Origin: a virus
Direction: 5' to 3' (one strand)
Virus record (IMG/VR): IMGVR_UViG_3300037493_002747
Location: 1-64,000 of that record
Length of the DNA stretch: 64,000 bases
The notes beneath the pieces were generated by a model. That model was given only the letters and a program-made list of their open reading frames with translations, made no database searches and had not been told where the DNA came from. Positions 36,674-56,550 of the stretch are shown here, in pieces. The position numbers and the translations under genes are program-made. Within the stretch, counting starts at the first letter, position 1, and each line of letters starts with the position of its first letter.

Positions 36674-39600
36674 ATGCCCTTTAGTACAGAAGAACTTGCC
36701 AAGAAGTTTGGCGATAGTGCCGAAGACGTTAAGAAGAGCCTTGAGGGAATGCTCGGGGCTGCTGACGACGTTGACAAGGTATTTGAAAAGATGACAGAGC
36801 GACAGGAAGCTGCCGCTCAGATTCAGGACAAGTTTGCGAAGGCTTTGGCTTCATCGTCAAAGTCTTTGACTGGCATTGGGCATTCTGGGATATCGGCGGC
36901 ACGGGGAATAAAGACCATTGATTCTGTATCTAGGTCTGCTGCATCATCTTTGGGTTCTCTGGGTATTGGAGCAGTCTCCGCTGTCGCCGGGTTCAAGGCA
37001 TTATCATCTGGTGCATCATCTTTCTCGTCAGATATTGAGAACACTGAGAAAAGCATTGCTGGTCTCGTTAAGGGTATAGGAGGTCTGGAAGCGAAACTCG
37101 GTGGCCTCAAGGCGGCATCTGTCTCGGTTGATGTTGTGATTGGAAGTCTTTCAGCATTGGATGACTTTGAGAAAAGAATCAAGGCGTTGCCTCAGAACGT
37201 GTCTGTAAATGTTTCTACTGGAGCTGCGGCTAAAACCGGGGCAGGAGCGGCATCGGCATCGGCAGGAGCGGCATCGGCGAAAGCAATGGCTAATGCGGCG
37301 GCTAAAGCAATGGCATCCAGAAAAACTCCTGCCTCAGCGGGAACATTGAGTGCGGCGATGTGGGGTGGACCTAATGCTGCCAAGAAAGCGGGGAGACTTT
37401 CCGGTGAATATGGAGGAAAGGCATTCGCAGAAAATTATGCTGAACAAGTAGCTAAGAACATTCGGAGTAAGTCGATCAAGTCAATGAAGGATAAGATGAC
37501 TTTGATGGCAGACGATACCGAGAAAATTAAGACTCCTGAAGGGAAGAAGAAGTATGTCGAATTGGCGGTAAAGATTGGCAAAAAGGGAGAAGTGTCGGAA
37601 ATTTTGGACGAGCTGAGTGACAATCAATCTAAGCTCTTCAAAAGGAATGTTGGCAAGATGGGCATGGAAAAGGCGATAGACAGTCTTATCGCCAAAACTC
37701 CAATTTTGGCTCTGCGTGTGAAGAAGGCGATGTCGGAAGCGGCGGAGGCTGCGGAAGAGGCAATTTCTCCATTTAAGAGACTTGAGGATCAAGTCAACAG
37801 TGAAGCAAAGACTTTCAAGGAGTTCATTTCACAAAATGTTGCTAAGGGTGGGGTGGAGTTCGGAGAGTTCGCAGGAGGATTGACGAAGAGTGCAACAGGG
37901 ATGTTTGCGGTTGGACTCGCTGCTGCATTTGTGGCAACGAAGATTTCTGAAATGGCTGAGAAATATGCGAATTACGCTTCTGAACTTGCCAAATATCGGG
38001 TAGAGACATCCGCATTGGAAGATACGATTGCCGGATTGGGTAAAAACGGGTTAGAGCCGTTACGTAAAGAACTTGGTCTTACTCGTGACCAAGCTGCTGA
38101 TTTCTACCAAGTTCTCAAGACTGGTGTGAATGAGCTTGGAATGAGTCCAGGGAAAATCATGGAGGTTTCCAAGGCACTGAGTGATACTTTTGGTGGAGAC
38201 CAAACAGCAAGGTTGAAGCAGTATGTTGATTTGCTCAAGGAGATTCCAACTATTGATGCGGACTTGAGCATTACGGCCAGCATGGATGATCAGGCAGCAT
38301 CGATTTACGCTTTGGCCAAAAGTGGTAAGATGGATGTGGTAATGGATTTACAGTCTGCTGGATTGTTTGGAGGGAAACAGGAAAGGAAAGAAGGAGCGGA
38401 CCTCGCTGATTCCAATCAAGCAGTTGCAAAAAACACAGAGGCCATTAAGGATTTCTTAACTGGATCATTATTTGGAACATGGACTCCGTATCTTGTTGCA
38501 TTGACGCAAGGTGTTTCTGCTCTTGTTGCAGCATTTGTGTCAGGATTAGCGATATGGGGAGGAATGAAAGCAGTACAGGGCGTATTCAAAACAGCTAGTA
38601 TTGCTACGATGTGGGCAACATGTAAAGCGATGGTTGCTGCAATACTTAGTTCTAAATCTGGCGGTAGGGGAAGAACTGGCAAGGGAGCTGTCAAGGGGGC
38701 TGTCAAGGGGGCATCGACGACAGCGGCCAAGGCAGCGGCCAAGGCAGTAGGGAGTAAGGCTGCGGCTACGGTGGCTACAACAGCTTCTAAAAAGGTTGCG
38801 ACGACAGCAGCTAAATCCGCCATATCACTTTCAAAATTTGGAGGTATCGCAGCTAAAATTGGTCCAAAATTGTTAGGAATTGGTCTTGCAGTAGTTGGAG
38901 TCGAGTTGGCTTGTGGTATGGCAGCAGACAAACTGGAAGAGACTGGTAAAACAGCAGCAGCGGCTGGAACTAGGATCGCTGGCAGTGCGGCAAGTATCGC
39001 AGGATTTGCACTTACCGGGGCTACTATTGGTGGGGCTATTGGGCTACTCGGAGGTCCCTTGGCGGCAGTTACTGCCACGGCTGGAGCAGTAGTTGGTGCA
39101 TTGGTTGGATTGGCAGTTGAGGCTAAAACTCTGTATAAGTCATTCAAGACTTTGGGTGTGTCGGCTTGGGAATATATTAAGAAATTCGGGTCGAGCAAGA
39201 AGTCTGAACCGACAACAGCATTGGGAAAGGCAGCAATTGAATTAAACGCGCAACTAATAGAAGAGCATGCGAAGATGGCTAAGTCTGGGATGGCCCTAGA
39301 ACAGTCTATGAACAGATTGAAGGCGGCTGTTAATAGTGCCAAGTTTGAATTCCTAGAGTTGAGTGCAAGACTTTCTAAGATTCAACTAAAAAACATTGGA
39401 GAAATTGGCGGTTCAATGGCGGGATTCACAAGTGCGATGCAGAAAGGTGAAGATGCCGCCAGGAAGATATTTAACGAGAAAAAGGCAGTAAATGAAGCAG
39501 AGCGTAAGAGAATCATGGGTAGTACGGATATGCAACCGGACCAGCGTCAATCTGCATATGATACTGTTCGAGAAGCAGAATTGAAGGCAGCCAATGATTT

Positions 39601-42600
39601 CGCAGAGGCATTGAGTGATCTTGCGACTACCTTGTATCAGACTCCTGAACTCATACAGAATGGATTGAAGCGTGAAATCGCAGGGACTACTCTTGGGCAA
39701 GCACAAGATACTGGAGCTTTCACAAGAGAATACAAGGATGTTGCTGAATCTAAAGATATTGGTTTGGCGAAAGAAGCCGTAACGAAGACTCAAGAAGCCA
39801 TGGTGAAATCATCAAAAATGGTTAGTGATTCTGTCAAAGCATATGAGGAAGCAAAGGTTGCGGCAGTTGCTAGTGGCAATGATTTGCTCAAAAAATATGA
39901 TGAAGAACTCCTTAATGATAAGATGGATGGGGCCAAGAGATTGGCCATGCAAGAGGAAAGGAACAGACTGAAGGCACTTCAGGATTCTAAGGCATTCGGT
40001 ACGGATGCTTCTAAAGAGTTGGTTGCAGCAAAAGGGAGACAGGGAAAGAAGAAAGCTGAAATTGAAATTCTGGAAGATAAACGAAAGGGAGAGTTTGAAA
40101 TAAAGCCGATGGCTGATGCAGCTAGTTCTAAGAAAGAACTTGATATCTATGGCAAGCAGAAGAAGAAGCTGGAAGAAAAACGTGATATAAAACAAAAAGA
40201 ACTTACAGATGTTGGTGGTAGCGATGAAAAATCGGAGGAGGCTCTTAAGGAAGTAGACAAGTTGAAAGGTGAGATAAAAGAGTTGAATGAGAAGATGACT
40301 CCTCTCATGAAAACAGTTTCCGAAGTTTCTTCTGATTTAAGTATAAAGATAAAAGCAATAAAGCCGGATTTGCCTACCGAGAAGATAACAGAAGCCGTAG
40401 AAGCGATTATGAACTCAGGCGGCGACATTGACAAAATGAGTAAGGCTCTAGAAGGATTCGGTCTTGCGGAGGTAGTAAAAGAAAGTATCAACAAGACAAA
40501 AGAGATTACTAAGGAGATAGGTGCTCTGAAAGACCAGAAGGGAGTTATTGACCAGGTTGTTGTACAGCATGAGTCGGTAGTCTCTAAAGAAGATGGGGTT
40601 ACAACGACACTGAAGGCGCAACTTGAGGCTGTTAAGAAGCATAGTGATGCTGTCAATGAATTAGTAAATTCTTACAAAAGATCTCTTGAGGGTGATTACA
40701 AAGAACTTCGCGTTAAGAGAGAGTCAGTTACTGCAACACAAGAGCAGGTAGCAATAGCCGGGCTTCATGGTTCTGCAACTGCGGAGTTGGCAAAACTTGG
40801 AGAGGAAGAAGGTAATTTAGCCAGAGAAGAATATGCTTATGCCAAGTCCAGTGTTAAACAGTTAGAAGGCATAATTGCAGAACATCAGAAAGCTGTTGAT
40901 TTAGCAAAACAAGTATCAGATGCGAACCCGAAAGATTTGTCTTTGAAGAAAGTATATGAGAGGGCATTAATCGAAATGGCAGGATATGAGACTCTGGCTT
41001 CTAATGCTAAAGATAGTTCGGAGAGAGCTATTCGCAAGTTGAAATTGGCAGGAGAGGGTGTGGATGAAGGATTGCAAGGATTTGCAAAGAGTATTACTGG
41101 AATCAATCTGACGAATATATCAGATTTGGCTAGTACACTGGCAGAGAGTGCTGAGTATACAGGAGATGTAGGAAAGGCTTCAGCGGAAAGTTTCAGGTTA
41201 GCTAAATATGCGTCTGATGAATGGTTGAAGAATGAGAAGGAGATTATCAAGGCGAGGATTGCTACTGCTAAAGCCAATATTGAAGCTGAAGCTGAAATTG
41301 TAAAACAGGATGCTCTGACCAAGAACAAGGATATGTCTCCGGAAGCAGCAGAGGCATTGAAGCAGCAGACGATAGCAGATATGAAGTCGGCGGTAGCGAA
41401 TAAGGAGAAACTTGCGTATGCCCAGGCGGAACTCAAACACAAGAAAGATGTTGTAGGAGCCGCAAAGAGGTCCAAGGAACTGAAGGAGGGTGAGCTTAAT
41501 ATTCAGCAGGGTTTGATTGATGACGCTATGTCGTTTGCGTCGGAGTTCGGCGGGTCTTTCGCATCAATCAATGCATTGCAGAATTTGAGTGTTGGTGTTG
41601 CCAGACAACAGTTGGATGTTGCCAAGGAATTCAGAGACAATATTCAGCAGGCATTCGAGGCTGCGGCAGGTGATGCTAATAAGCAGGCTGAGGTCGGCAA
41701 GGCATTGTTTCAGGCTCAAGCGGATGTGGCTACGCAGACTCTTAATCTTCGCAGGAAGGAGCTTGGCGTTCAGAAGAATATGATGGAGCAAATGCTTGGA
41801 GGTGTGTTTGGAGAGATGAGGAGCAATTTTGGAGCACGTCGTCAGATGGGTTCGGACGTGTCGATGATGGGCATAAATGCTACTCGTATGAAGTCAGCTT
41901 CTGGAATGTATGTCAATACTCCTGGTGGTAAGCCCGGAACAATCGAAGAACGGCGTAATAGACGGATGTTGGGTGGGGCTGGTGGGGCCGGTCCTTTGGA
42001 TGAATTGGCGAAGATGGGTGGGCCGATGGCTGAGGTTGCCAAGGCGATGAACAAGTCTCCTTCACGAGAACAGCAGGCGAAGTTGTTGGAGGAAGCAAAT
42101 GCTACTAGTAAGAACACGAAGGACGTGGCGAACTCAACTAGTCGAGGAGATCAGCCGGGATCATTTTACACGCATGATACGACAGCAGAGGGATTACTTG
42201 GAGGTATTCTCGGGGTATTGAGGGAGCTTACGGTAGGCATGTTGGATTCAGCGTTTACATCAAAATCAAAAGATGCAGGAGTAGTTGGAAAGAGATTGGA
42301 CGATGTTATTGCTGGGGCAGCTAAGACAGCGGCATCGGTAAAGGCGACTACGACACAAAAAGAGGATACGACTGCCGGTGTAGAGACAATTAAGAAGAAT
42401 TCTGAAAAGGTGGCTGGTCTGGAAGATGCTATAAGGATTCGGGAAAATGAGAATCCGATAGCAACAGGTGTTGAAGACCATAACAGGGTTCGGGCAGGCA
42501 GACCAATGACGGCAGATGGGGCCAATAAGGCATACATGGAGGCTTACCAGAAGTTTGGGGAAGGCTCTAAGGAAGTTGAAGCTGCAAGGAAGGACTATGA

Positions 42601-43219
42601 GATTGCTTCAAGCAATTCAGTGGAGGCGAATAAGGCATCAGTGGGTGAGAATAGGGCTAGCCCAGTTTCGGCTGCGAAAAAAGCCAGAAATATGTCTAAA
42701 ATGGTTGGGATTGGTGGTCGTTCAAGTTTGATGGGTACAATGCTTGGTGGGATGAGGACTGGAATAAAAGAGATGGGTGGTTTGGGGAACACCAAAGAGA
42801 TGAGTGGTTTGGGCAGCATGAAAGAGATGCGTGGTTTGAAGCCTCTTGGTGGTGTGACGAAGCAGGGTGGAAACACATCGGGTGGGGTTAAGACGGTTGG
42901 CGGTGCGACTGCAACTGGACTTGGCATGACTAAGGCGGGATATGCAGCGAATACCGCAGGTGGGGATACAATGGCTAGTAGGGCTGCGGGAACGGAAGTA
43001 GCACCACCGTCAGTTGGTATGACAGCAGCAAGGGCTCCTGGTGGTTCTACAGGAGGTGGCGGGATAGAGGCTGGGTCGAGTATCACTGTAAAAGGAGAGA
43101 TGATGGTCAAGTTTGACAACAAAATGTTCCAGCAGCAGATGACGGCTGTAGTATTGACCATCATGAACAATAGTCAGGCGCAGAAGCAGATTCAAAACGC
43201 CGTCTTGAAGAAGTCTTGA
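36674..43219 (+). CDS. tail tape measure protein
   Basis: 2181 aa, A/K/E-rich and helical, with central hydrophobic G/A segments; position. Confidence 0.85.
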   Translation: MPFSTEELAKKFGDSAEDVKKSLEGMLGAADDVDKVFEKMTERQEAAAQIQDKFAKALASSSKSLTGIGHSGISAARGIKTIDSVSRSAASSLGSLGIGAVSAVAGFKALSSGASSFSSDIENTEKSIAGLVKGIGGLEAKLGGLKAASVSVDVVIGSLSALDDFEKRIKALPQNVSVNVSTGAAAKTGAGAASASAGAASAKAMANAAAKAMASRKTPASAGTLSAAMWGGPNAAKKAGRLSGEYGGKAFAENYAEQVAKNIRSKSIKSMKDKMTLMADDTEKIKTPEGKKKYVELAVKIGKKGEVSEILDELSDNQSKLFKRNVGKMGMEKAIDSLIAKTPILALRVKKAMSEAAEAAEEAISPFKRLEDQVNSEAKTFKEFISQNVAKGGVEFGEFAGGLTKSATGMFAVGLAAAFVATKISEMAEKYANYASELAKYRVETSALEDTIAGLGKNGLEPLRKELGLTRDQAADFYQVLKTGVNELGMSPGKIMEVSKALSDTFGGDQTARLKQYVDLLKEIPTIDADLSITASMDDQAASIYALAKSGKMDVVMDLQSAGLFGGKQERKEGADLADSNQAVAKNTEAIKDFLTGSLFGTWTPYLVALTQGVSALVAAFVSGLAIWGGMKAVQGVFKTASIATMWATCKAMVAAILSSKSGGRGRTGKGAVKGAVKGASTTAAKAAAKAVGSKAAATVATTASKKVATTAAKSAISLSKFGGIAAKIGPKLLGIGLAVVGVELACGMAADKLEETGKTAAAAGTRIAGSAASIAGFALTGATIGGAIGLLGGPLAAVTATAGAVVGALVGLAVEAKTLYKSFKTLGVSAWEYIKKFGSSKKSEPTTALGKAAIELNAQLIEEHAKMAKSGMALEQSMNRLKAAVNSAKFEFLELSARLSKIQLKNIGEIGGSMAGFTSAMQKGEDAARKIFNEKKAVNEAERKRIMGSTDMQPDQRQSAYDTVREAELKAANDFAEALSDLATTLYQTPELIQNGLKREIAGTTLGQAQDTGAFTREYKDVAESKDIGLAKEAVTKTQEAMVKSSKMVSDSVKAYEEAKVAAVASGNDLLKKYDEELLNDKMDGAKRLAMQEERNRLKALQDSKAFGTDASKELVAAKGRQGKKKAEIEILEDKRKGEFEIKPMADAASSKKELDIYGKQKKKLEEKRDIKQKELTDVGGSDEKSEEALKEVDKLKGEIKELNEKMTPLMKTVSEVSSDLSIKIKAIKPDLPTEKITEAVEAIMNSGGDIDKMSKALEGFGLAEVVKESINKTKEITKEIGALKDQKGVIDQVVVQHESVVSKEDGVTTTLKAQLEAVKKHSDAVNELVNSYKRSLEGDYKELRVKRESVTATQEQVAIAGLHGSATAELAKLGEEEGNLAREEYAYAKSSVKQLEGIIAEHQKAVDLAKQVSDANPKDLSLKKVYERALIEMAGYETLASNAKDSSERAIRKLKLAGEGVDEGLQGFAKSITGINLTNISDLASTLAESAEYTGDVGKASAESFRLAKYASDEWLKNEKEIIKARIATAKANIEAEAEIVKQDALTKNKDMSPEAAEALKQQTIADMKSAVANKEKLAYAQAELKHKKDVVGAAKRSKELKEGELNIQQGLIDDAMSFASEFGGSFASINALQNLSVGVARQQLDVAKEFRDNIQQAFEAAAGDANKQAEVGKALFQAQADVATQTLNLRRKELGVQKNMMEQMLGGVFGEMRSNFGARRQMGSDVSMMGINATRMKSASGMYVNTPGGKPGTIEERRNRRMLGGAGGAGPLDELAKMGGPMAEVAKAMNKSPSREQQAKLLEEANATSKNTKDVANSTSRGDQPGSFYTHDTTAEGLLGGILGVLRELTVGMLDSAFTSKSKDAGVVGKRLDDVIAGAAKTAASVKATTTQKEDTTAGVETIKKNSEKVAGLEDAIRIRENENPIATGVEDHNRVRAGRPMTADGANKAYMEAYQKFGEGSKEVEAARKDYEIASSNSVEANKASVGENRASPVSAAKKARNMSKMVGIGGRSSLMGTMLGGMRTGIKEMGGLGNTKEMSGLGSMKEMRGLKPLGGVTKQGGNTSGGVKTVGGATATGLGMTKAGYAANTAGGDTMASRAAGTEVAPPSVGMTAARAPGGSTGGGGIEAGSSITVKGEMMVKFDNKMFQQQMTAVVLTIMNNSQAQKQIQNAVLKKS

Positions 43220-43220
43220 T

Positions 43221-45737
43221 ATGAGTAACCCAGTAGTAACATTTACGAACAGCATTGATGAGCCGTCTGATCCTCAAACGGTTCGCAAGACGTACACTAT
43301 GAAGGTGTTTGATTCGATCAACTTCTTCCTCTATAACGAAGGAGAGGATTCCTCTAATTTCACTCCAGGGGATATGGGAATGGAGTTTTATCTGTGGTAT
43401 CGTGTAAGTGGCGCACAAGGTCCACAAGGGTTTACCCAGAAGCCAAATTTTATAACGGATACTAGTTGGACAAGTATGAAGGCGGCTCCTTCAGGATTCA
43501 TTACTCCGAATAAGTCGGTTATGCCCAAACTTCTTGGTCCATCGACGCTTCTGGTCGATAATGGATTAAGAACAACAGTAGGAGTGTTTCAAGCATTGCG
43601 TTGGGATGCTGTAACGAGTACTTGGTATGACGGATTTAACTGGAATATGGACAAGTTTAACAATTTGTCTATTCCTTCTGATAAATGGTTTAAGTTTGGA
43701 CAAGTAGGTTCTACCTTCGGTGCTCAATATGTTTCAATCAAGGCCAAGGATGATAATCTTGGCACCAATAAGATGGAGATGTATTTGGAAAGTCCTAACC
43801 CTCCTTTAATCCCAGGTGATTGGGATAATACGACTTTGGTAGTGGGAGGGGCTTTCACATTAATGTTGAACATTGTAGGAATCACTCCTGGGAAGGCAGG
43901 AGCAACGAATACAGATTTGAGCCGGTGGAAGATTACGATCAAGTTCGGCGACGTAACGATGACGATTGCTGATGCTAGTACGATGAATGTCAATATTGCA
44001 GGGGATGGTCCTCTTGGTAATGACACAATGGTAAATTTGGCAGAAGGTGCGGCTAAGGAAGGGCCACCGCAACAGAGTTTTATTGCAGATAAGCCTCCTT
44101 TACTTATCAATGTGATTCCGTGTTGGAATGGGGTTATCGTATCTACGGGGCAGCAGGAAACTCGTGAAGTCGTTAGGTCTGCGCCAACATTCTGTCGCAA
44201 GTTGAAGAATTCATCGATCCAAATGGCTCCTTATTCCACATGGTTTGACCCTATGAACCCGGCAGATGTTGAGGTTGGAACGGATTCGGGGGCGGTAATT
44301 GTGGATTTCGGAACACGGATGGATGTGGTTGCTGAAAATTGTAGATTTGAGATCGCTTATTTGCCCAAATTTTTCGTAAAGGCTATGGCGTTTGATGGAT
44401 GGTTATTGCTGTCAAAAGATACGGATGACATTACTTATGATTACAACATCTACACTATTTACACCTATAATGACGATAGTGATTGGGTAGTTGCCCTACC
44501 GACGGTTACTGACTCGGGGACAGCAGGAACGCCTGACAATAGTTCTTATTTCTATATTCCTTGGTCTATGGCGACTACTTCTGAGAAGCATAAAAGGTAT
44601 GCAGGTGAAATCTTTGCATACATCTTGGAAACAAAGGAGACTAGGACAACTAGCATCAAAAATGGGAATGGCAATTTTGACATAACATGGTCCGGCGGAA
44701 CAGCAGGAGATTCTGAAGTTACTGATGATACTGATTGGGAGAAGTATATCAAGAATGTCAGTGTTACTATTGGATTAGATGGTTCGAGTGGTACGATGAC
44801 GGTAGATAAGTATGGTGTGGCTGGACAGGACGCTATTGCAGATCAGAGTATTGGAGCCGTTGTTCTTGAAGTTACGGGCGGAATCAGCACAAAGGAAGGA
44901 ACGATTTTCAAGGGACTTGGGATGGGGATATCGAATGCAGAAACTTCGGGAGACTCAGTCTGGACAGTTCCGCTGCTAGGATTAGAGAAGAAGCTTGAAG
45001 ATATAGCTCTCATCAATCCGCCATATATGGATGGAGAAACTTTAGCTACGGCATTGGATTACTTGTGTCGTAGTGCAGGTATAATACATGATATGTCGGC
45101 AGCAGATGGAACAGTAACCCTTTCAGCTTCGGAGGAAATAAATACAGCAAGATTTGATTGGAAATCAGGAACATCTATCAAGACTGCATTGGACGATGTA
45201 ATGGGCGATACGAAACATGTGTATGTTGTCAGAGATGGTAAAATCTTCTTTTACGAATTAGGGACAGATGGACTTCCAACTACGTTGGGAGATGATCAGT
45301 CTACGGGATATGATTTTACCAACATGGTGGCGATAGATAAGACTCCGGATTTTGATGATCTTCGTAACTATGTCGTTGCAATGGCAATGCAGAAAGTTCC
45401 TGAAGGACAAGGAACGGAAATCCAACAAGTTCCAACATGGCCAATGATCGAAACCAGAACGAAGACAACGACACCGGATGTTCCATGGGCCAAATGTATG
45501 GTTGCAGTATATTCTGGCTTATTGGACCCTGCGACTCTAGCAGATATTGCAGATAAGTTGGATAATCAAACTTCCACTTACGAATTAAGTGGAAGGATTA
45601 CAATTCCTGGGAATGCGGAGATCAAGCCGTATGACCAGTGGGGCACTGACTATGTGATTATGTCTGTGACACACAATGTAGATCTTGACGCGAAGACGTG
45701 GACGACGGATTTGGAATTTATGAGGAAAGCGTTGTAA
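43221..45737 (+). CDS. baseplate hub/tail tip protein
   Basis: C-terminal GRITIPGN.EIKP...YVI.SVTH...WTT.LE hub signature. Confidence 0.6.
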   Translation: MSNPVVTFTNSIDEPSDPQTVRKTYTMKVFDSINFFLYNEGEDSSNFTPGDMGMEFYLWYRVSGAQGPQGFTQKPNFITDTSWTSMKAAPSGFITPNKSVMPKLLGPSTLLVDNGLRTTVGVFQALRWDAVTSTWYDGFNWNMDKFNNLSIPSDKWFKFGQVGSTFGAQYVSIKAKDDNLGTNKMEMYLESPNPPLIPGDWDNTTLVVGGAFTLMLNIVGITPGKAGATNTDLSRWKITIKFGDVTMTIADASTMNVNIAGDGPLGNDTMVNLAEGAAKEGPPQQSFIADKPPLLINVIPCWNGVIVSTGQQETREVVRSAPTFCRKLKNSSIQMAPYSTWFDPMNPADVEVGTDSGAVIVDFGTRMDVVAENCRFEIAYLPKFFVKAMAFDGWLLLSKDTDDITYDYNIYTIYTYNDDSDWVVALPTVTDSGTAGTPDNSSYFYIPWSMATTSEKHKRYAGEIFAYILETKETRTTSIKNGNGNFDITWSGGTAGDSEVTDDTDWEKYIKNVSVTIGLDGSSGTMTVDKYGVAGQDAIADQSIGAVVLEVTGGISTKEGTIFKGLGMGISNAETSGDSVWTVPLLGLEKKLEDIALINPPYMDGETLATALDYLCRSAGIIHDMSAADGTVTLSASEEINTARFDWKSGTSIKTALDDVMGDTKHVYVVRDGKIFFYELGTDGLPTTLGDDQSTGYDFTNMVAIDKTPDFDDLRNYVVAMAMQKVPEGQGTEIQQVPTWPMIETRTKTTTPDVPWAKCMVAVYSGLLDPATLADIADKLDNQTSTYELSGRITIPGNAEIKPYDQWGTDYVIMSVTHNVDLDAKTWTTDLEFMRKAL

Positions 45738-46841: not shown

Positions 46842-49800
46842 ATGTCGGATTGGACCAGTTACGAAAAAGAGCGATTCTATCATATCGCTCGACAAGCAGA
46901 AATCGTGGTCATCAAGGACCGTGATGTCATCGCGTTTATCCCCGAAGCCATAGGGCTTGCAGCTACACAGGGGATTGATCTTTATCGTAAAAGTGATGAG
47001 ACATATTCCATGTGGAAGTCTACTCCGCCTGTTGCAGTAGAAGCTTCCGAAAGATTGCTTTGTTGGACTAGAGTTTCAGGAACAGAGATGGTGTCGGGTT
47101 ATAGATGGGTTCCTTATATTACTTCCGACAACCCGGACACTACAAAGATATTGCCATTGCGGGAAGTGTTTTCCCCACGAGTAACCTATGACAGAACTAG
47201 CAATATGTTACATCTGTGGTTCTGGACGAATGTCAAATGGGATTACACGGGAACGGAATATTCCGAGGACAATATTTTCAAGATTGGGTACAAAGACTAC
47301 AAAAGCTTTTTTGACAATGCCGCTAACAAGATGACGTGTAAACGAGTCTTGTGTTATGCGGTAGGACAGTTTGGAAATTACTGGATAAAGGGCGGATTGA
47401 TTGATGGTTATCAAGGATTTTTGGGGCTACAAGGTGTCCAGAATGATCAGTATGACATTATTCCTGTTTTCACTCGACCGACGATCATTACAAATTTTTC
47501 GGTAACGAGTTTGGATGACGCTCCCGGACTTATTACTGATGGATGGTACGAGATTCAGGGTATCCAAAGTGGCTTTCAAGGATTCCAAGGCTTTCAGGGA
47601 TTTCAAGGCTTTCAGGGTTTTCAGGGCTTTCAAGGATTTCAGGGTTTTCAGGGATTTCAAGGATTTCAGGGATTTCAAGGATTTCAGGGATTTCAAGGAT
47701 TTCAGGGATTTCAAGGCTTTCAGGGCTTTCAAGGATTTCAGGGGTATCAGGGTTTTCAAGGATTCCAAGGCTTTCAGGGATTTCAAGGATTTCAGGGTTT
47801 TCAGGGATTTCAAGGCTTTCAGGGTTTTCAGGGATTTCAAGGCTTTCAGGGTTTTCAGGGATTTCAAGGCTTTCAGGGTTTTCAGGGTTTTCAGGGATTT
47901 CAAGGCTTTCAGGGTTTTCAGGGATTTCAAGGCTTTCAGGGTTTTCAGGGATTTCAAGGCTTTCAGGGTTTTCAGGGATTTCAAGGCTTTCAGGGTTTTC
48001 AGGGATTTCAAGGCTTTCAGGGTTTTCAGGGGTATCAGGGCTTTCAAGGATTTCAGGGGTATCAGGGATTTCAAGGCTTTCAGGGATTTCAAGGCTTTCA
48101 GGGTTTTCAGGGATTTCGAGGCTTTCAGGGTTTTCAGGGATTTCAAGGATTTCAAGGTTTTCAGGGCTTTCAAGGCTTTCAGGGTTTTCAGGGATTTCAA
48201 GGATTTCAAGGTTTTCAGGGCTTTCAAGGCTTTCAGGGTTTTCAGGGGTATCAGGGTTTTCAGGGGTATCAGGGCTTTCAAGGATTTCAGGGGTATCAGG
48301 GTTTTCAGGGGCTTCAAGGATTTCAGGGTTTTCAGGGGCTTCAAGGATTTCAGGGTTTTCAGGGGCTTCAGGGTTTTCAAGGGTTTCAGGGTTTTCAAGG
48401 AAATCAGGGATTTCAGGGGAATCAGGGTTTCCAAGGGAATCAAGGATTTCAGGGGAATCAGGGATTTCAGGGGAATCAAGGTTGGCAGGGCAATCAGGGA
48501 TTTCAGGGGAATCAAGGTTGTCCGGCGTGCATGACTGCCAGCGATATCTATCTACCAACATCAGGGTCGGGGTATGCATACCCCGACGTGAATAGTGATT
48601 GTTGGTCAGCAGGAGAGATAATTTGCATATCGGTTAGTGGGAAAGTAGATCAAGGCACCATCTCGTACATTAATGAGGGTTCTATTCGATTTACACTTGA
48701 TACTAATCCTTCGACGGGGGGGTACTATTCAAATGGAACCATATGTCATGGTGGTTGTGCTATCGGAATGCAGGGTTTTCAAGGAAATCAGGGATTTCAA
48801 GGCAATCAGGGATTTCAAGGGAATCAGGGATTTCAGGGGAATCAGGGATTTCAGGGAAATCAGGGAAATCAGGGAAATCAGGGCAATCAGGGCAATCAGG
48901 GAAATCAGGGAAATCAAGGGAATCAAGGGAATCAAGGGAATCAAGGGAATATGGGGTGGCAAGGTCCGCAAGGTTTTCAGGGATTTCAAGGGAATCAAGG
49001 ATTTCAAGGGAATCAAGGAAATCAGGGATGTTCGGCGTGTGTTAAGGGTGAGTTCAATGATCAGGGATCAGGCAATATCTTTATCAGGGTCTTTACACCT
49101 GATTCGGCAGATTGTTTCATTACTGGAGAAACGATTTGTATTTCTGATAATAGTAGTGGAGTAGTTTTATGTTCCGCAACAGTTACCAGCATTTATTTGG
49201 AGAACAACGGTTTCTACGGCAATAATACTAATCCTTCGACGGGGGGGTACTATTCAAATGTAACTGTATGTCATGGTGGTTGTGCTATCGGGAATCAGGG
49301 ATTTCAGGGGAATCAGGGATTTCAGGGGAATCAGGGGAATCAGGGATTTCAGGGCAATCAGGGATTTCAAGGGAATCAAGGGATACAAGGGAATCAAGGT
49401 ATTCAGGGATTTCAAGGATTTGCAGGATGTGCGGCATGTGAGCAGACGCACAGCTCTTCTCAGGGCATCAGCATACCAACATCGGGGACTGGTAGTGCCC
49501 AGTTGGATTATACTCACAAAGATTGTTGGACTGTAGGAGAAACAATATGCGTATCGGTTAATGGGGGGGTATCATATCAATGTTCCCTTACGAGTAAGAG
49601 TGAGATTGGCGGGTTTGATATCTATTTTACACCTAATACTTATCCTTCTGTCGCCATAAGCAATGCTGGTGGAATGGTATGTCATGGTGAATGTGTAACC
49701 CAAGGACTTCAGGGATTTCAGGGGAATCAAGGTTGGCAAGGGAATCAAGGATTTCAGGGGAATCAGGGCTGGCAAGGAAATCAAGGTTTCCAAGGAAATC

Positions 49801-50126
49801 AGGGATTTCAGGGGAATCAGGGTTTCCAAGGGAATCAAGGCTGGCAAGGGAATCAAGGATTTCAGGGGAATCAAGGCTGGCAAGGGATACAGGGGCTACA
49901 GGGATTTCAGGGCTGGCAAGGAATACAGGGTCCGCAAGGGATACAGGGGATACAGGGGCTACAGGGATTTCAGGGCTGGCACGGAATACAGGGAAATCAA
50001 GGGCCACAAGGGTACCAAGGCCCTGAGATGACATTTGCAACGATTGGAACACCTGTGTATATTCTTGGCAAGGATGCGGGCGGGAACATAGGATGGGTTG
50101 CAGTACAGACATTTACATGTCCATAG
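46842..50126 (+). CDS. collagen-like (Gly-X-Gln)n fibre protein with three Cys-rich modules
   Basis: Four G-X-Q tracts separated by GCxAC...DC...GE.IC.S...CHG.C modules. Confidence 0.8.
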   Translation: MSDWTSYEKERFYHIARQAEIVVIKDRDVIAFIPEAIGLAATQGIDLYRKSDETYSMWKSTPPVAVEASERLLCWTRVSGTEMVSGYRWVPYITSDNPDTTKILPLREVFSPRVTYDRTSNMLHLWFWTNVKWDYTGTEYSEDNIFKIGYKDYKSFFDNAANKMTCKRVLCYAVGQFGNYWIKGGLIDGYQGFLGLQGVQNDQYDIIPVFTRPTIITNFSVTSLDDAPGLITDGWYEIQGIQSGFQGFQGFQGFQGFQGFQGFQGFQGFQGFQGFQGFQGFQGFQGFQGFQGFQGFQGFQGYQGFQGFQGFQGFQGFQGFQGFQGFQGFQGFQGFQGFQGFQGFQGFQGFQGFQGFQGFQGFQGFQGFQGFQGFQGFQGFQGFQGFQGFQGFQGFQGYQGFQGFQGYQGFQGFQGFQGFQGFQGFRGFQGFQGFQGFQGFQGFQGFQGFQGFQGFQGFQGFQGFQGFQGYQGFQGYQGFQGFQGYQGFQGLQGFQGFQGLQGFQGFQGLQGFQGFQGFQGNQGFQGNQGFQGNQGFQGNQGFQGNQGWQGNQGFQGNQGCPACMTASDIYLPTSGSGYAYPDVNSDCWSAGEIICISVSGKVDQGTISYINEGSIRFTLDTNPSTGGYYSNGTICHGGCAIGMQGFQGNQGFQGNQGFQGNQGFQGNQGFQGNQGNQGNQGNQGNQGNQGNQGNQGNQGNQGNMGWQGPQGFQGFQGNQGFQGNQGNQGCSACVKGEFNDQGSGNIFIRVFTPDSADCFITGETICISDNSSGVVLCSATVTSIYLENNGFYGNNTNPSTGGYYSNVTVCHGGCAIGNQGFQGNQGFQGNQGNQGFQGNQGFQGNQGIQGNQGIQGFQGFAGCAACEQTHSSSQGISIPTSGTGSAQLDYTHKDCWTVGETICVSVNGGVSYQCSLTSKSEIGGFDIYFTPNTYPSVAISNAGGMVCHGECVTQGLQGFQGNQGWQGNQGFQGNQGWQGNQGFQGNQGFQGNQGFQGNQGWQGNQGFQGNQGWQGIQGLQGFQGWQGIQGPQGIQGIQGLQGFQGWHGIQGNQGPQGYQGPEMTFATIGTPVYILGKDAGGNIGWVAVQTFTCP
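47571..48515 (+). repeat. 9-bp-period coding repeat, 105 Gly-X-Y triplets (mostly GFQ)
   Basis: GGN TTT CAR units. Confidence 0.95.
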
Positions 50127-50365: not shown

Positions 50366-50830
50366 ATGCCAATCGTACTTTTTGATGCATCGAAGTTGCA
50401 CCCTGACGATTTAACGGGGATACTTCAATATGAGACGCAGTTGTGTGGAATTGTGAACAATTATCCCGTAGGGAGGTCTGCCGTGCCTTATGAACCAATG
50501 GACATCTATGCTAATAACGACCGGACTCTTCGTGTATACATAAAGACGCCGGAACTAAACATTGTGAATTTGACTGGTGCGCAAGGACTTCTGTCAGTAA
50601 AGACAGACAAGGATGCCACTTCGCCGGTAATAACGAAGTCTACGGACATCGGGTCAGAGGGAGCCATTGGATCGCCGGATCAAGGTGAGATGTTTTTCTA
50701 CCTTGTTCCTTTGGATACTGCGTCGTTGTCTATTAGACAGTATGTCTATGATGTTAAGGTGACTTTGACGACGGGGAAGAAGTATACAGTACTGGAAGGT
50801 GTCATTAATTTGCTTGAACCAGTAGGATAA
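50366..50830 (+). CDS. BppU N-terminal-like baseplate domain protein
   Basis: VNLTGA...YVYDVKV...TVLEG pattern. Confidence 0.55.
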   Translation: MPIVLFDASKLHPDDLTGILQYETQLCGIVNNYPVGRSAVPYEPMDIYANNDRTLRVYIKTPELNIVNLTGAQGLLSVKTDKDATSPVITKSTDIGSEGAIGSPDQGEMFFYLVPLDTASLSIRQYVYDVKVTLTTGKKYTVLEGVINLLEPVG

Positions 50831-50885
50831 TTCCACAAGACCTGACGCATTGGTATATAATGAGGTGGTATTGCTGGAGGTCTAT

Positions 50886-53800
50886 GTGGCTTTTGTAAGT
50901 ATTGATTTGTCGAATTCTTTGGTTGTGCATGATGCCTACGAGCAAAGGACGGCTATTGCCGATCTTGGTGGGTATTGGGACGCCCAAAACAAGGCTTGGC
51001 GTATCGTATTCACGATTGCCAATTTGGAAGCACTCCTTGACGCTATTCCCGACATTTCAACATCGGAAGACTTGGCTGTAAAGGTCAAGGATCAGATGGA
51101 TAAGGAAGCCAAGCTGGAAAAACTTCGGGTGATGTCAAAGCAGGATACGCAGGTGTGTCTGCGTATTCCGGGTATGAAGCTTTCACTATACAACTACCAG
51201 CGGCTTGGCGTTATGTATGCGGCAACTAATCGTGTAGGACTATTGCTGGCGGATGAAATGGGACTAGGGAAAGGGACAACCATTGATAGCCAAGTATTTA
51301 CGACTTTTGGAAAGGTTAGAATCGGATCGTTGAAGGTGGGCGACGAGGTAGTAGGCAAGGATGGAAAACCTCATAACGTGATTGGAGTTTACCCCCAGGG
51401 AATGCGAGAAGTTTACCGTGTGTGGTTCAACGATGGGTTCTATCTTGACGTGGACAGTTCTCACTTATGGGAAGTAAGGTCTAACAACCAGCACAGCAAG
51501 GTGAGGAAAACGTCTGGGGTCGTCCTTTCGATGGAACAACTTCTGGACAAGGACGGTGTTGCGGAACGTGTCGGTGAAGGAAGGAATAGCGGTAAGACCT
51601 ACAAGTTCAAAACCTACTACAAGAAAACGAACGGGAACAACTCATGGGGAATACCGATGGTTGACCCCATCCAGTTCGTACACCGCACCATAGACATAGA
51701 CCCGTACCTCCTCGGAGTCTGGCTTGGCGATGGACATATTATGAAAACAGGGTATGTAAACCTAGTAATGCTAAAGGCAGACCTTGCTGATATGAATGTT
51801 GGAGGCAAGATTGGAAGAGTAGACGCATCACACATGGAAGCTCGTCTTTTCAATACACATAAACAGGAGTTGGTCAATCTTGGTTTGAACGGAAAGAGAG
51901 CTTGGGAGAAGTTTATACCTGATGACTATAAATACAATTCCGAAGAAGTTAGACTTGCGGTGATTCAAGGATTGATGGACACAGACGGACACGCATCGGA
52001 TTGTGCGACCGAGTATTCGACCAGTTCTAAGCAGTTGTGCGACGATGTGGTTGAGATTGTGCAGACGCTTGGTGGTATCGCAAGGGTCAGGTCCAGGATT
52101 CCACGTTACTGGTATAAGGGAGTAAAGAAGACGGGAAGGACGAGTTACAGTGTCAATATCAAGTTGCCTCCTAGTATTGTTCCGTTCCGTCTACCAAGAA
52201 AGGTTGTGGACTATGATAAGTGTGACAAGTATAGTCCCGAGCGATACATTTGTAATATAGAAAAACTCGCAGAAAAGAAAGAAACGGTTTGCATCTCAGT
52301 CGATGCTCCTGACAATCTTTATGTCACGGAACATTGTATCGTTACCCACAACACCCTCCAGGCCATTGGTACAGCAATGTTCTTAAAGGCTTCGGATGGG
52401 GCGAAGAAGGCACTTATTGTTACGCCAGCATCACTCAAGTTTAACTGGCCATTGGAGATCGAGAAGTTTACAGATGAGAAGTACGTGGTCATTGATGGTA
52501 CGCCGGATGAGAGAGTTGCGCAATGGCTTCGGGATGATGTGTTTTTCTATGTCGTCAATTTCGAGCTGTTACTGGAAGATTTGTTTGGAGGCAGGAAGTT
52601 CAGGGAGAAGAAGGGTGAGTCCGATGAGGACAGGCAGAGAAGGTTGGACAGGCATGAAAAGATTTCTACTAAAGCGAAACAGAGGCGGGGGATACTGACG
52701 ACAGTTAGGAATAGGGTATGGGATGTAATAGCGGTGGATGAATGTTTTCCGTATGGAACGATGATCGAAACGGATAAAGGACGGATGAGTATTGGAGATG
52801 TCGTATCTCAAAAATTGCCAGTGTCCGTTTTGTCTTGTGATTTTTCAAGGAATGTGTCATCGTATCGACGTGTTGTTAGATGGATGGAAAAATCTATGTC
52901 TGGACACCTCGTGGAGGTGACGCATGAAAGAGGAAGTTTTGTCTGTACTTGGAATCACAAAATCTGGACAGATGAATGGGGATATATCAAAGCGGGTGAA
53001 GCCACGAAGTATGGTGAAGCGCATTTGCGAGTTTTGCCATCACGAGTTCGATGCACCTCGCAAGGGGAAGTCAACACCGAGATTTTGTTCGGTGGTTTGT
53101 TCCGGAAGATTCAGACAGATGTGTCAGGACACCGTGGCGAAACAAGTGGCAGCAAGAACGATGCCAAAGATAGTGTTCAATTGTATGGAATGCGGTCGAG
53201 AGTTTGTGGTCAGGACGACAAAAGAGCAGGAGAGGAGATTTTGTTCGAGGAGGTGTGTGGCGATCTGGAGGTCAAAAACAGAGGATCGGAAAGACAGAAT
53301 GTTGAAGATGCAGGTGGCCTGCGGGTTAGTAACGAAGGGAAAGCCGAATCTGAGATTCTCCAAGTTTATGACAGAGAAGAATCAAGACCCGGTATTCCGA
53401 CAGAAGGTGATGGAGGGGGCAGCAAAGTGGAGGGAGACACATCCATCATTTCTTGTGAGGGGCGGGAAACCATTCATAACGAAGCCGCAGAGATTGTTGG
53501 CGGAAGCTCTTGGAGAAGAATGGGAGATGGAATACAAGGTCTCCGACAAGAGAATGGCAGATGTGTTGGTGAGTCCACCTCGGTTCTATCAGATAGACAT
53601 TGCAAATGTGGGAATGAAGATTGCTGTAGAGGTGGACGGAAGAACCCACAGGATGACGAAGTGGAAGATAATCGATGCTCGGAAGGAGAAGGCTTTGTCT
53701 TATCTCGGTTGGAAAGTATTAAGGTTCTGGAACGAAGAGATTTTGAAAGACTTGGACTTGGTAGTCCGGAAAATCTCCGAGTCTATAATCTCGAAGTAGA

Positions 53801-54842
53801 AGCTGATACGGACGACGATCATTGTTATGTTGCTGATGGTGTCCTAGTTTCTAATTGTCAAGCACTCAAGCATCATTCGTCCACCCGGACTCAGAATGTG
53901 CTGAACTTAAAGGCCAAGTGTCGTATGGCTTTAACAGGGACTCCGATGGATGGAAGGCTTGAGGAATTGCACAGTTTGATGCAGTTTGTGGCTCCCGGAC
54001 TTCTCATGTCCAAGACTCGGTTTTTTCAGAGGCATGTTGAGACGGACTTTTGGGGTAGGGTGACTGGGTACAAGAGAATGGGAGAGGTATCTCAGAAGAT
54101 TCAACAGTTCTTTCTTCGCAGGTTGAAGAGGGACGTTTTGAAGGACTTACCGGACAAGGTTTATGAGAATCGGCTAGTGTCCTTGACGGCTGAAGAACAC
54201 AAAATTTACAAGGCTCTGGCGGAGCAAGGGCATGAGGCGACAGAAGATGTTTTGGCAGTAGTTTCAGTTATTCGTTGTAAGCAGTTTTGTAATTATCCTC
54301 AGATGGTGGATGCGTCGTGTACGACAACGTCAAAGATGGATTCCTTCAGAGAGGTTCTGGATGAGGTTGTGGTCCAGAATGGTCATAAAGCATTGGTGTT
54401 CAGTCAATACAAAGAAATGCTGAATATCCTTGTCCCTGAATTGGAGAAGATGGGTATAAAGTACATGAGGATCGACGGAGACACTCCTCCAATAGAGCGG
54501 GCTTCGATGCAGAAGAAGTTCAATGAGGATAAAAGTCTTGATGTGATGATTGGAACTGAGGCTATGTCAACAGGGCTGAATTTCCAGTCAGCGGATTATG
54601 TTATCAACTATGATGACAATTGGTCTCCGGCTATTATGGCGCAACGTGAAGATAGGTGTCACAGGAATGGGCAGAGGAATGTGGTTACGGTAGTGAACTT
54701 CATTTGTAGAGACACGATTGAAGAACGTATCCGTGGAGTCATCTACGCGAAGAACAGGGTTACGGCACAAGTCCTTGGAGATGAGACTGATGATATGGTC
54801 TTGAGAAGACTTGGTCCAAAAGATGTTTGTCAGTTGTTGTGA
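50886..54842 (+). CDS. SNF2-family helicase with two inteins
   Basis: LADEMGLGK|T, VDE|CQ, LTGTP, VFSQY, QREDRCHRNGQ; SD GGAGG before GTG. Confidence 0.9.
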   Translation: MAFVSIDLSNSLVVHDAYEQRTAIADLGGYWDAQNKAWRIVFTIANLEALLDAIPDISTSEDLAVKVKDQMDKEAKLEKLRVMSKQDTQVCLRIPGMKLSLYNYQRLGVMYAATNRVGLLLADEMGLGKGTTIDSQVFTTFGKVRIGSLKVGDEVVGKDGKPHNVIGVYPQGMREVYRVWFNDGFYLDVDSSHLWEVRSNNQHSKVRKTSGVVLSMEQLLDKDGVAERVGEGRNSGKTYKFKTYYKKTNGNNSWGIPMVDPIQFVHRTIDIDPYLLGVWLGDGHIMKTGYVNLVMLKADLADMNVGGKIGRVDASHMEARLFNTHKQELVNLGLNGKRAWEKFIPDDYKYNSEEVRLAVIQGLMDTDGHASDCATEYSTSSKQLCDDVVEIVQTLGGIARVRSRIPRYWYKGVKKTGRTSYSVNIKLPPSIVPFRLPRKVVDYDKCDKYSPERYICNIEKLAEKKETVCISVDAPDNLYVTEHCIVTHNTLQAIGTAMFLKASDGAKKALIVTPASLKFNWPLEIEKFTDEKYVVIDGTPDERVAQWLRDDVFFYVVNFELLLEDLFGGRKFREKKGESDEDRQRRLDRHEKISTKAKQRRGILTTVRNRVWDVIAVDECFPYGTMIETDKGRMSIGDVVSQKLPVSVLSCDFSRNVSSYRRVVRWMEKSMSGHLVEVTHERGSFVCTWNHKIWTDEWGYIKAGEATKYGEAHLRVLPSRVRCTSQGEVNTEILFGGLFRKIQTDVSGHRGETSGSKNDAKDSVQLYGMRSRVCGQDDKRAGEEILFEEVCGDLEVKNRGSERQNVEDAGGLRVSNEGKAESEILQVYDREESRPGIPTEGDGGGSKVEGDTSIISCEGRETIHNEAAEIVGGSSWRRMGDGIQGLRQENGRCVGESTSVLSDRHCKCGNEDCCRGGRKNPQDDEVEDNRCSEGEGFVLSRLESIKVLERRDFERLGLGSPENLRVYNLEVEADTDDDHCYVADGVLVSNCQALKHHSSTRTQNVLNLKAKCRMALTGTPMDGRLEELHSLMQFVAPGLLMSKTRFFQRHVETDFWGRVTGYKRMGEVSQKIQQFFLRRLKRDVLKDLPDKVYENRLVSLTAEEHKIYKALAEQGHEATEDVLAVVSVIRCKQFCNYPQMVDASCTTTSKMDSFREVLDEVVVQNGHKALVFSQYKEMLNILVPELEKMGIKYMRIDGDTPPIERASMQKKFNEDKSLDVMIGTEAMSTGLNFQSADYVINYDDNWSPAIMAQREDRCHRNGQRNVVTVVNFICRDTIEERIRGVIYAKNRVTAQVLGDETDDMVLRRLGPKDVCQLL
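51273..52352 (+). mobile_element. intein 1 (360 aa; class-3-like, LAGLIDADG endonuclease) in Walker A
   Basis: Ends VTHN|T; LLGVWLGDG and IQGLMDTDG motifs; W-C-T triad. Confidence 0.85.
52743..53855 (+). mobile_element. intein 2 (371 aa) in Walker B
   Basis: CFPYGT start, CTWNHKIW block B, VYNLEV...VLVSN|C end. Confidence 0.85.
52924..53799 (+). CDS. DUF559/Vsr-like endonuclease with zinc-finger repeats, nested in the +1 frame within intein 2
   Basis: SD GGAGGTG; two CxxC...FCSxxC fingers; IDIA...IAVEVDG.TH...D...GWKVLRFWN. Confidence 0.85.
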   Translation: MKEEVLSVLGITKSGQMNGDISKRVKPRSMVKRICEFCHHEFDAPRKGKSTPRFCSVVCSGRFRQMCQDTVAKQVAARTMPKIVFNCMECGREFVVRTTKEQERRFCSRRCVAIWRSKTEDRKDRMLKMQVACGLVTKGKPNLRFSKFMTEKNQDPVFRQKVMEGAAKWRETHPSFLVRGGKPFITKPQRLLAEALGEEWEMEYKVSDKRMADVLVSPPRFYQIDIANVGMKIAVEVDGRTHRMTKWKIIDARKEKALSYLGWKVLRFWNEEILKDLDLVVRKISESIISK

Positions 54843-54849
54843 GGTATTT

Positions 54850-56550
54850 ATGTCGAGCTTCCATGACACAGTAGAACTTGAACGTGCCTTTCTTCGTGCG
54901 GTTACGAGTGGCATCATTATGGCCCGTACCTACATAAATCAAGGCAGGGAGGAGATGTTCACATCCGATCCTCGAAGATTCATATTTGCCATAGCGGTTA
55001 TGACTTTGAATGAGTCGAACTCTCTTTTATCTAAGCAGATATACGAATATGAGGTGAGTTCAAGACTGGGTGAAAATGATGCGGCAGACTTCATTGGCGA
55101 ATGGAACATGATTGATGGGGTGGCGTCATATGATTCACCAGAGGTACTTTTGGCGAAGATTCGTGATGCGGAGATTGGCCGTAGGGCATTGAGGTTGTCT
55201 GAAAATGTTGTCGATATGCTGACAAAGGGCAATATCAAGGATGCCGTTTCATTTCTAAAGCGTGAGGCGATGATGATTGGTGGTGGTCCAAAGGATGACC
55301 GCCCGGTAATACCATTGTCAGACATTTCCATTCGACTGAAATTGTATCAGGATAGGAAGGAAAACCCGGAGAAGTACCAAGGATTGAAGATTGGATTCAA
55401 GACATTCGATCAGTGGACTGGTGGTTTGTTTCCTGGTGAGTTGACCCTGATTGCTGGCGTTACTGGATTGGGCAAATCGACTCTTTGTCGTTCGATTGCC
55501 AAGGGGATTGTGACGCTCAATGGGGCGAAGAATGTTCTTCATGTCGCTAATGAGGAATATCTGGAACAGGTTCAGTATAAATATGATGCCTTGTTTATGG
55601 GGATTCCGTATACAGACTTCAAGTATGCTAGACTTACGGACGATGCCTTGGACCGATGGCAGAAGCAGATGCAGAAGGGAATGCAGGAATCCGGGATGGG
55701 GCAGATTTTCACGAAGGAGGTTCCGGCGTTTACGGATGTGTCTTTGGTGGAGCAGCAATATCGTATCTTGGAGAATCGTGGGATACCTATTCATGCTATC
55801 ATTATTGACCATCTTCCCCATGTGAAGCCGATTCAACAGTCGTGGGGAGAGAATGATGAGCGGTTTAAGGCGGCGGCAGATTGTAAGGAGTTGGCTCGTA
55901 GTCTTCGGGTGCCGGTAGTCACTCCTACTCAGGCGGCTACAGAGGTGGAGAAGAAACAGGCTAAGGGTCAGAGAGCCAGCAAGATGGATGTTTACGGGTC
56001 CAAGGGGCAAGTCCATGTAGCGAACACGTTTCTTATCATAACGTACAAGGGGACGGATGATACGCAACAGGATATACCCGACTATCTTCGGGATGTCTAC
56101 TGGTTGTGTGATGCTAAGAAGAATCGTGATGGACCTCCGTTCTATTTCATGGCGAAGCATCAGGTAAAGGATGGTCAGGTAACAGAGATCGCTGATCCGA
56201 GCAAGAAACCCAGCAAGGAGGCCAAGGATGGGGTAGAAAAGGCTCTGAATGAGGCGGAAGGTACTGGTAAGCCTCCAGTGGCGAAGACGGCTTCTGTGGT
56301 TGATCAGACGCCTGTGGTTCTCAATACTGGTCTTAGGGACGCTCAAATGGACTATGTTGAGGCTATTGATGGTGGAGGGGACAATGAAGATGTTCCCTCA
56401 GTTTCTGGACAAGAGGTCCAGGGTATTGATTCGGTCATATCGGAAGCGGAGCAGGATACTGTAAAGGAAAGGCCAGAATCTGCGAATTCCGCACCGAAAT
56501 CACTAATGGATAGAATTCGTGCCTCAAAGATTGCAATCCCCGGTGTATAA
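54850..56550 (+). CDS. DnaB-like replicative helicase
   Basis: GELTLIAGVTGLGKS, IIIDH, PTQA, KNRDG. Confidence 0.85.
   Translation: MSSFHDTVELERAFLRAVTSGIIMARTYINQGREEMFTSDPRRFIFAIAVMTLNESNSLLSKQIYEYEVSSRLGENDAADFIGEWNMIDGVASYDSPEVLLAKIRDAEIGRRALRLSENVVDMLTKGNIKDAVSFLKREAMMIGGGPKDDRPVIPLSDISIRLKLYQDRKENPEKYQGLKIGFKTFDQWTGGLFPGELTLIAGVTGLGKSTLCRSIAKGIVTLNGAKNVLHVANEEYLEQVQYKYDALFMGIPYTDFKYARLTDDALDRWQKQMQKGMQESGMGQIFTKEVPAFTDVSLVEQQYRILENRGIPIHAIIIDHLPHVKPIQQSWGENDERFKAAADCKELARSLRVPVVTPTQAATEVEKKQAKGQRASKMDVYGSKGQVHVANTFLIITYKGTDDTQQDIPDYLRDVYWLCDAKKNRDGPPFYFMAKHQVKDGQVTEIADPSKKPSKEAKDGVEKALNEAEGTGKPPVAKTASVVDQTPVVLNTGLRDAQMDYVEAIDGGGDNEDVPSVSGQEVQGIDSVISEAEQDTVKERPESANSAPKSLMDRIRASKIAIPGV

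Follow-up and report, generated by a model that had tools for sequence, protein, structure and literature searches.

A predicted homing nuclease gene overprinted in the +1 frame of a contiguous phage intein

How can an intein whose middle part encodes nothing recognizable in the frame of its host gene contain, over the very same nucleotides, what looks like a complete nuclease? The question is raised by the first 64,000 nucleotides of the IMG/VR virus record IMGVR_UViG_3300037493_002747—the whole stretch analysed, hereafter the window; the source record measures 75.8 kb and is ~23% complete according to CheckV. A gene for an SNF2-family helicase carries there two inteins, and the second one, intein 2, encloses in the +1 frame an open reading frame (ORF) of 291 codons. 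We hold with good confidence that intein 2 is a non-canonical, complete mobile intein, and that its homing nuclease has a gene to itself, lodged in the +1 frame between the two halves of the HINT splicing domain. That the nuclease is translated independently, that the intein splices and that the target site is cleaved is what we infer from this arrangement. The features on which the discussion relies are the following:

50850 to 54842, + strand: SNF2-family helicase gene with two inteins (Pfam SNF2-rel_dom 6e-30, Helicase_C 2e-24)
52743 to 53855, + strand: intein 2, 371 amino acids (aa), at VDE/C in helicase motif II, the Walker B or DExH box (the slash marks the junction); contiguous, host frame stop-free
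52743 to 53042, + strand: N-terminal HINT half of intein 2 (aa 1-100, blocks A and B); predicted local distance difference test score (pLDDT) >90 in the AlphaFold2 (AF2) model
53043 to 53696, + strand: host-frame "shadow" linker, aa 101-318 of intein 2; stop-free, predicted disordered, without constraint at the amino-acid level
53800 to 53855, + strand: blocks F and G of intein 2, ending in VSN and followed by Cys at +1; read from the sequence
52913 to 52919, + strand: Shine-Dalgarno-like (SD) GGAGGTG, 4 nucleotides (nt) before the nested ATG 52924; likewise read from the sequence
52924 to 53799, + strand: nested +1 gene of the putative homing nuclease, 291 aa (DUF559, 1.6e-13); in-frame alternative starts at ATG 52972 and ATG 53011
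53026 to 53100, + strand: zinc finger 1 of the nuclease, CxxC..FCSxxC, aa 35-59 (family profile against the FCS zinc finger 2l8e, 8e-3)
53182 to 53256, + strand: zinc finger 2 of the nuclease, CxxC..FCSxxC, aa 87-111 (C87, C90, C107 and C111 invariant in 69 sequences)
53476 to 53796, + strand: DUF559 / EDxHD (Vsr-like) catalytic domain (E236, D238, H242 and D251 invariant in 69 sequences, that of the window included)
53697 to 53799, + strand: zone with folded, conserved protein in both frames; core at 53697-53729

What does each frame encode? On the host side, the initial annotation of the window had read normal splicing blocks at both ends of intein 2 and, between them, a stop-free middle devoid of motifs and rich in R, G, E, D and S; both readings hold. 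Cys1 directly follows VDE, block B displays its TxxH motif (T69..H72), and C1, H72 and the terminal N371 are invariant in the 69 members of the family described below. The residue after the C-terminal Asn is a Cys, as in 62 of the 68 family inteins considered, the six others having Ser. In the AF2 model of the host-frame product the pLDDT exceeds 90 for aa 1-100, drops to ~45 for aa 101-315 and is high again from aa 319, and the folded part matches the mini-inteins of DnaE, DnaX and RecA (Foldseek, E 2e-6 to 1e-5). A Pfam search of the in-frame middle matched no family, and R+G+E+D+S make up 54% of the 218 residues of the linker (53043-53696).

On the side of the +1 frame, the annotation had placed an ORF of 291 codons at 52924-53799, provided with GGAGGTG and ATG, and in it two CxxC..FCSxxC fingers followed by a complete DUF559/Vsr-like nuclease; coordinates, signals and domains were all retrieved. 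The DUF559 match of the product scores 50.9 bits, for a Pfam cut-off of 20.6, and the family profile finds 3hrl (1e-13) and 3r3p (9e-4) in the PDB. The nuclease model built from the 69-sequence alignment has a mean pLDDT of 88.5 and is poor at aa 1-30 only (46-66); its best Foldseek match is 3r3p, the catalytic domain of I-Bth0305I (target TM-score 0.72), followed by 3hrl (DUF559) and 1vsr (Vsr). A TGA at 52918-52920 shuts the +1 frame just 5' of the nested ATG, and the frame is then open from 52921 to 53799.

Could the host frame have remained open over such a gene by chance? The host frame of intein 2 is devoid of stops; we count 5 of them in the +1 frame—all outside 52921-53799—and 29 in the +2 frame. 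A host-frame stop requires a T at the third position of a nuclease codon, and then AA, AG or GA. Of the 291 nuclease codons 94 start with one of these dinucleotides, and the codon that precedes them ends in T in 0/94 cases, versus 49/196 elsewhere. When the nuclease was resampled synonymously 20000 times with the codon usage of the window itself, the host frame acquired 23 (+/- 4) stops on average and never less than 10. Therefore the host frame is kept open by selection and chance is excluded, which bears out the earlier claim that these 876 nt are dual-coding.

The same data bear on a more trivial explanation, in which two compensating indels, introduced by sequencing or assembly, would have displaced an ordinary in-frame endonuclease domain. 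Certainly indel errors are possible on a single metagenomic contig, and the initial annotation had itself singled out this artefact; but a host frame selected to be stop-free excludes such indels, and the same frame relation recurs in 80/80 independent viral contigs (the best 80 of at least 294 relatives) as well as at 61 loci of cellular genomes. We give this explanation practically no credence.

Is the amino-acid sequence selected in one frame or in both? Frame-specific selection was measured on nine close pairs of viral loci, as had been proposed with the initial annotation, and the result comes out in favour of the nuclease. Substitutions at positions 1, 2 and 3 of its codons number 230, 216 and 460 respectively, and on the same nucleotides the ratio of non-synonymous to synonymous changes (pN/pS) amounts to 0.29 when they are read as nuclease, to 1.20 when read in the host frame and to 1.15 in the third. 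Purifying selection over the overlap acts in the nuclease frame only. Likewise, between the window and its ortholog L002 the same DNA encodes nucleases that are 58% identical and shadow peptides that are 37% identical.

Conceivably the shadow peptide is itself functional in a sequence-specific manner, regulating splicing for example: its frame is always kept open, and one short host-frame segment, 53697-53729, is clearly selected. However, the host-frame pN/pS equals that of the non-coding third frame, the shadow is far less similar to its counterpart in L002 than the nuclease is, its pLDDT is very low and Pfam yields no match for it; as to the selected segment, it is a usual strand of the HINT fold lying outside the linker. 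A function of this kind appears very unlikely to us.

Along the overlap three regimes succeed one another. In the 5' part (52924-53042), HINT block B overlies a nuclease leader that is neither conserved nor structured; in the middle (53043-53696) the constraint bears on the nuclease only, the host frame having merely to avoid stops; at the 3' end (53697-53799) both frames encode folded and conserved protein. In the core of this last zone (53697-53729), the C-terminal HINT half begins with a strand (intein aa 319-329, pLDDT 95) that lies over the most conserved motif of the nuclease, L-G-W-x-V-L-R-F-W-N (aa 258-270). The codons used there are strikingly uniform: Gly262 is GGG in 59/69 sequences, Lys264 is AAA in 35/37, Val265 ends in G or A in 64/67, and Leu266 is TTG in 53/67, versus 30% of all Leu codons. 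Because these synonymous sites are nearly fixed, the host frame reads an alternating strand R-V-E-S-(V/I)-E-(V/I)-L-E, and the segment 53697-53729 is under selection in both frames. In the literature on out-of-frame intein endonucleases we found no published description of such a three-regime pattern.

Is the arrangement private to this phage? A single nuclease sequence used as query against the viral contigs gave no match, but a scan of IMG/VR with an alignment of the nuclease and 7 database homologs did find the relatives, of which the best 80 form the viral set to which all our viral locus counts refer. In each of these 80 loci the frame equivalent to that of the host is stop-free over the nuclease and is part of an open frame of 660-2900 aa, the other frame containing 6-37 stops; both intein junctions are plain in 77/80. 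The N-junction reads DE/CF.. in 56 of the 68 unique inteins, and the C-junction ..(S/H)N, followed by the Cys or Ser already counted. The exteins are of SNF2 type, clamp-loader-like, DEAH/UvrB-like, or giant ORFs. Judged from its junctions and exteins, the element of this family thus occupies the Walker-B/DExH site of P-loop NTPases that are unrelated to one another.

The cellular set comprises 80 loci from bacterial and archaeal contigs, with one genome per species. The same +1 nesting inside an intein is found in 61 of them, distributed over many phyla. Among the 19 non-nested loci, 16 are short matches limited to the DUF559 domain, many of them alphaproteobacterial and most with stops in the frame in question; free-standing DUF559 genes served as the control for the open host frame. 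Two longer relatives of the nuclease, L117 and L131, are also free-standing, with 13-16 stops in the would-be host frame, and are candidates for the kind of free-standing form that could invade a mini-intein. One further locus, L102, looks like a degraded nested copy. We also considered a split intein of the fractured-gene type (Dassa 2009) and rejected it, the host frame having 0 stops in the window and in 80/80 viral relatives.

The distribution leads us to lean, without great conviction, towards a common history: the zinc-finger/EDxHD nuclease and the HINT shell would be one old composite, which would have spread without changing its frame relation, in phages as well as in many bacterial phyla, to the Walker-B sites (DE/C(H)) of P-loop NTPases unrelated to one another, among them SNF2 proteins, clamp loaders, DEAH helicases and giant proteins of phages. 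Its overlap would be more than a read-through that is tolerated, both frames being selected near the 3' end, where 33 nt serve at once the most conserved motif of the nuclease and a HINT strand. The family is nearly absent from protein databases, a search for nuclease homologs among 5.8 billion predicted proteins giving 7 matches versus hundreds of loci by the DNA scan. We read this scarcity as reflecting gene callers, which suppress nested ORFs, and not as true rarity.

Is the nuclease translated from its own start, and does the intein that surrounds it still splice? The SD signal of the nested gene in the window is among the strongest of the family. In most loci an ATG stands just before zinc finger 1, and a strict SD core placed 4-16 nt before an ATG within 30 codons of this finger is present in 17/71 unique viral loci versus 3.1% in equal-sized random sets of ATGs, an enrichment of ~8-fold. 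A scan of 50500-55200 for promoters and terminators returned sites no commoner than in shuffled sequence, and none convincing 5' of the nested gene.

Several observations nevertheless weigh against a complete element with an independently translated nuclease. A strong SD is found in only about a quarter of the nuclease family, and L002, the closest relative, has none at the ATG equivalent to 52924. The first 30 aa of the nuclease are poorly conserved and have a low pLDDT, so that the true start is uncertain. As for the intein, its penultimate residue is Ser in place of the His that is usual—not universal—at this position. The initial annotation had rightly pointed to this Ser, but it is no oddity, since 29 of the 68 unique family inteins share it, with H in 36, G in 2 and K in 1; on this comparison it is a trait of the clade and no private defect of intein 2. 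By contrast two changes in block F appear specific to the window: an insertion of 12 nt (4 aa) at ~53802-53813, and a Cys instead of Asn beside the block-F His, each found in 0/11 nearest relatives. Because of them the splicing competence of intein 2 is less certain than that of its relatives, and the efficiency of splicing may be affected.

The doubts about the start would be accommodated by a programmed +1 ribosomal frameshift producing a fusion of the N-terminal HINT half with the nuclease, without any independent start; the intein half could then aid DNA binding, as it does in some canonical inteins. The absence of a strong SD in three quarters of the family and the lack of conservation of nuclease aa 1-30 are consistent with this, and the +1 frame, which opens only at 52921, leaves ~100 nt for the shift. 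On the other hand we see no conserved slippery site, the ATG before zinc finger 1 is general enough and its SD cores enriched enough to argue for initiation, and the existence of the free-standing relatives L117 and L131 implies that the nuclease can work alone. A frameshift is in our opinion improbable.

Alternatively the nuclease could have become a domesticated or decaying passenger, no longer homing, with the intein maintained by vertical descent only; the private insertion in block F goes in this direction. Such a passenger would hardly show a pN/pS of 0.29, nor keep all its catalytic and zinc-binding residues intact as the copy of the window does. Moreover the element is sporadic among close orthologs and resides in unrelated host genes: the SNF2 ortholog L002 carries both inteins whereas L082, whose C-extein is 69% identical to that of the window, carries neither, and its empty site reads VDE-AQ. 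Together, patchy presence among orthologs and insertion into unrelated genes characterize a homing element, which fits intein 2 being mobile. A mere passenger therefore seems unlikely to us, and we retain an intein with a separate and probably active nuclease gene.

How would this element work? Ribosomes translating the SNF2 frame would cross the overlap without meeting a stop and produce the disordered linker of ~218 residues, around which the HINT halves would fold. Intein 2 would then excise itself together with the linker, restoring motif II as VDE-C. Other ribosomes would initiate at the internal GGAGGTG/ATG and produce the 291-aa EDxHD nuclease with its two FCS zinc fingers. By analogy with I-Bth0305I, the nuclease would cut intein-less alleles near the DE/A or DE/C site, and the repair of the cut allele would copy the whole element in.

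The host gene itself and its surroundings deserve a few words. The true start of the SNF2 gene is likely the GTG at 50886, downstream of a GGAGG at 50876-50880. When the host gene was submitted to megablast, no match came out of the phage collection. Upstream of intein 2 lies the other intein of the gene, with boundaries deduced from the comparison with L002 and L082:

51273 to 52352, + strand: intein 1, in the P-loop at GLGK/T, with an in-frame LAGLIDADG domain (Pfam LAGLIDADG_3, Hom_end_hint)

The first residue of intein 1 is Gly, where the ortholog L002 has Ala. By eye, the "WCT" marks can be recognized—a Trp that follows the His of block B, a Cys in block F and a Thr preceding the final HN—and intein 1 looks like a class 3 intein.

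Around the SNF2 gene extends a phage replication module encoding a DnaB-like helicase, a Toprim primase and a sigma-like protein. Elsewhere in the window, 46842-50126 encodes a protein of 1094 aa in which collagen-like repeats, (G-F-Q)n, extend over ~1 kb (Pfam Collagen, 5.6e-94; repeat core at ~47560-48590), which is probably tail-fibre-like; the stack of ORFs of 340-360 aa seen at this stretch results from the repeat, which keeps five of the six frames open. A Ro60-like protein is encoded by the phage at 19063-20895 (Pfam TROVE 1.6e-21, and Ro60 vWA 1e-7). Two very large ORFs of 2181 and 838 aa, at 36674-43219 and 43221-45737, have no Pfam match.

What does the arrangement of intein 2 imply? 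First, in a large and widespread family of phage and prophage inteins the gene of the homing nuclease is overprinted, and annotation pipelines miss it; surveys restricted to the intein frame would therefore probably classify these inteins as "mini-inteins" or "degenerate". Second, the layout supports the idea that inteins acquire endonucleases by capturing free-standing nuclease genes, and would be an intermediate between the fractured-gene state and the fully in-frame endonuclease domain. For the study of constraints on overlapping genes it is also a clean case provided by nature, with three selection regimes in 876 nt. Finally, the splicing halves would appear to tolerate a disordered linker of ~220 residues. 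As for the nuclease, it is a candidate enzyme for specific cleavage at a conserved helicase motif.

How new is this? The initial annotation proposed a separate nuclease gene nested in an intein; the layout of the 80 viral loci, the pN/pS values and the disorder of the in-frame middle support this proposal, but the layout as such has precedents. An out-of-frame intein endonuclease was first proposed by Gorbalenya in 1998, as cited by two preprints of the Gogarten laboratory. A close precedent is the cyanobacterial dnaX intein, for which a +2 LAGLIDADG ORF with SD motifs and a frame-specific omega has been described (Phillips, DeSimone & Gogarten, bioRxiv 10.64898/2026.09.14.751524). Like intein 2, it is contiguous, it is inserted in a P-loop ATPase at a site of Walker-B type, its in-frame middle is disordered, and its endonuclease gene, overlapping on the same strand, has its own SD and a low omega in the endonuclease frame. 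It differs by its LAGLIDADG enzyme, its +2 frame and its hosts, which are cellular cyanobacteria, whereas here we deal with an EDxHD nuclease provided with zinc fingers, in the +1 frame, in phages and many phyla.

The non-canonical inteins of actinobacteriophages, which contain antisense LAGLIDADG, antisense VSR-like and frame-3 endonuclease VII-like genes, are proposed to originate from the invasion of a mini-intein by a free-standing nuclease gene (bioRxiv 10.1101/2025.01.02.630785). They share with intein 2 the full intein, the endonuclease encoded outside the extein frame—of VSR-like/EDxHD type in some of them—and the unstructured in-frame middle. By contrast their VSR-like nuclease is antisense, the sole same-strand case being endonuclease VII-like and in frame 3, and their hosts are terminase, polymerase, capsid and ThyX genes, not the DE/C sites of helicases and clamp loaders. 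Our literature search, full texts included, turned up no account of an EDxHD nuclease encoded in +1 on the same strand within a contiguous intein.

In the fractured genes, a free-standing Vsr-like homing endonuclease gene lies between the halves of a split intein (Dassa et al. 2009, PMC2677866). The nuclease family, its place between the intein halves and the phage DNA-metabolism genes concerned are the same as here, and the fractured genes even show short overlaps of the nuclease 3' end with the downstream intein part that resemble the present overlap. However they consist of two ORFs relying on trans-splicing, while here the host frame is stop-free and the whole nuclease gene is overprinted.

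Two other systems resemble parts of the element only. I-Bth0305I, the prototype of EDxHD homing endonucleases (Taylor et al. 2011, PMC3239194; PDB 3r3p), is like our nuclease phage-encoded and multidomain, with an N-terminal DNA-binding part, the same catalytic fold and the same E/D/H/D residues; but it belongs to a group I intron of recA and has NUMOD-like N-terminal motifs, where we find an intein and FCS zinc fingers. In phage ShiLan, an insertion in a methylase hides an HNH endonuclease encoded out of frame (Arsenault et al. 2025, PMC11855218): there too the host frame reads through without stop while an alternate frame encodes a homing nuclease, but the enzyme is of the HNH type and there is no splicing domain, so that the host protein retains the off-frame peptide. 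Alltogether, the general layout of intein 2 is already known, and it is by the nuclease family, the frame and the large size of the family that it differs from the known cases.

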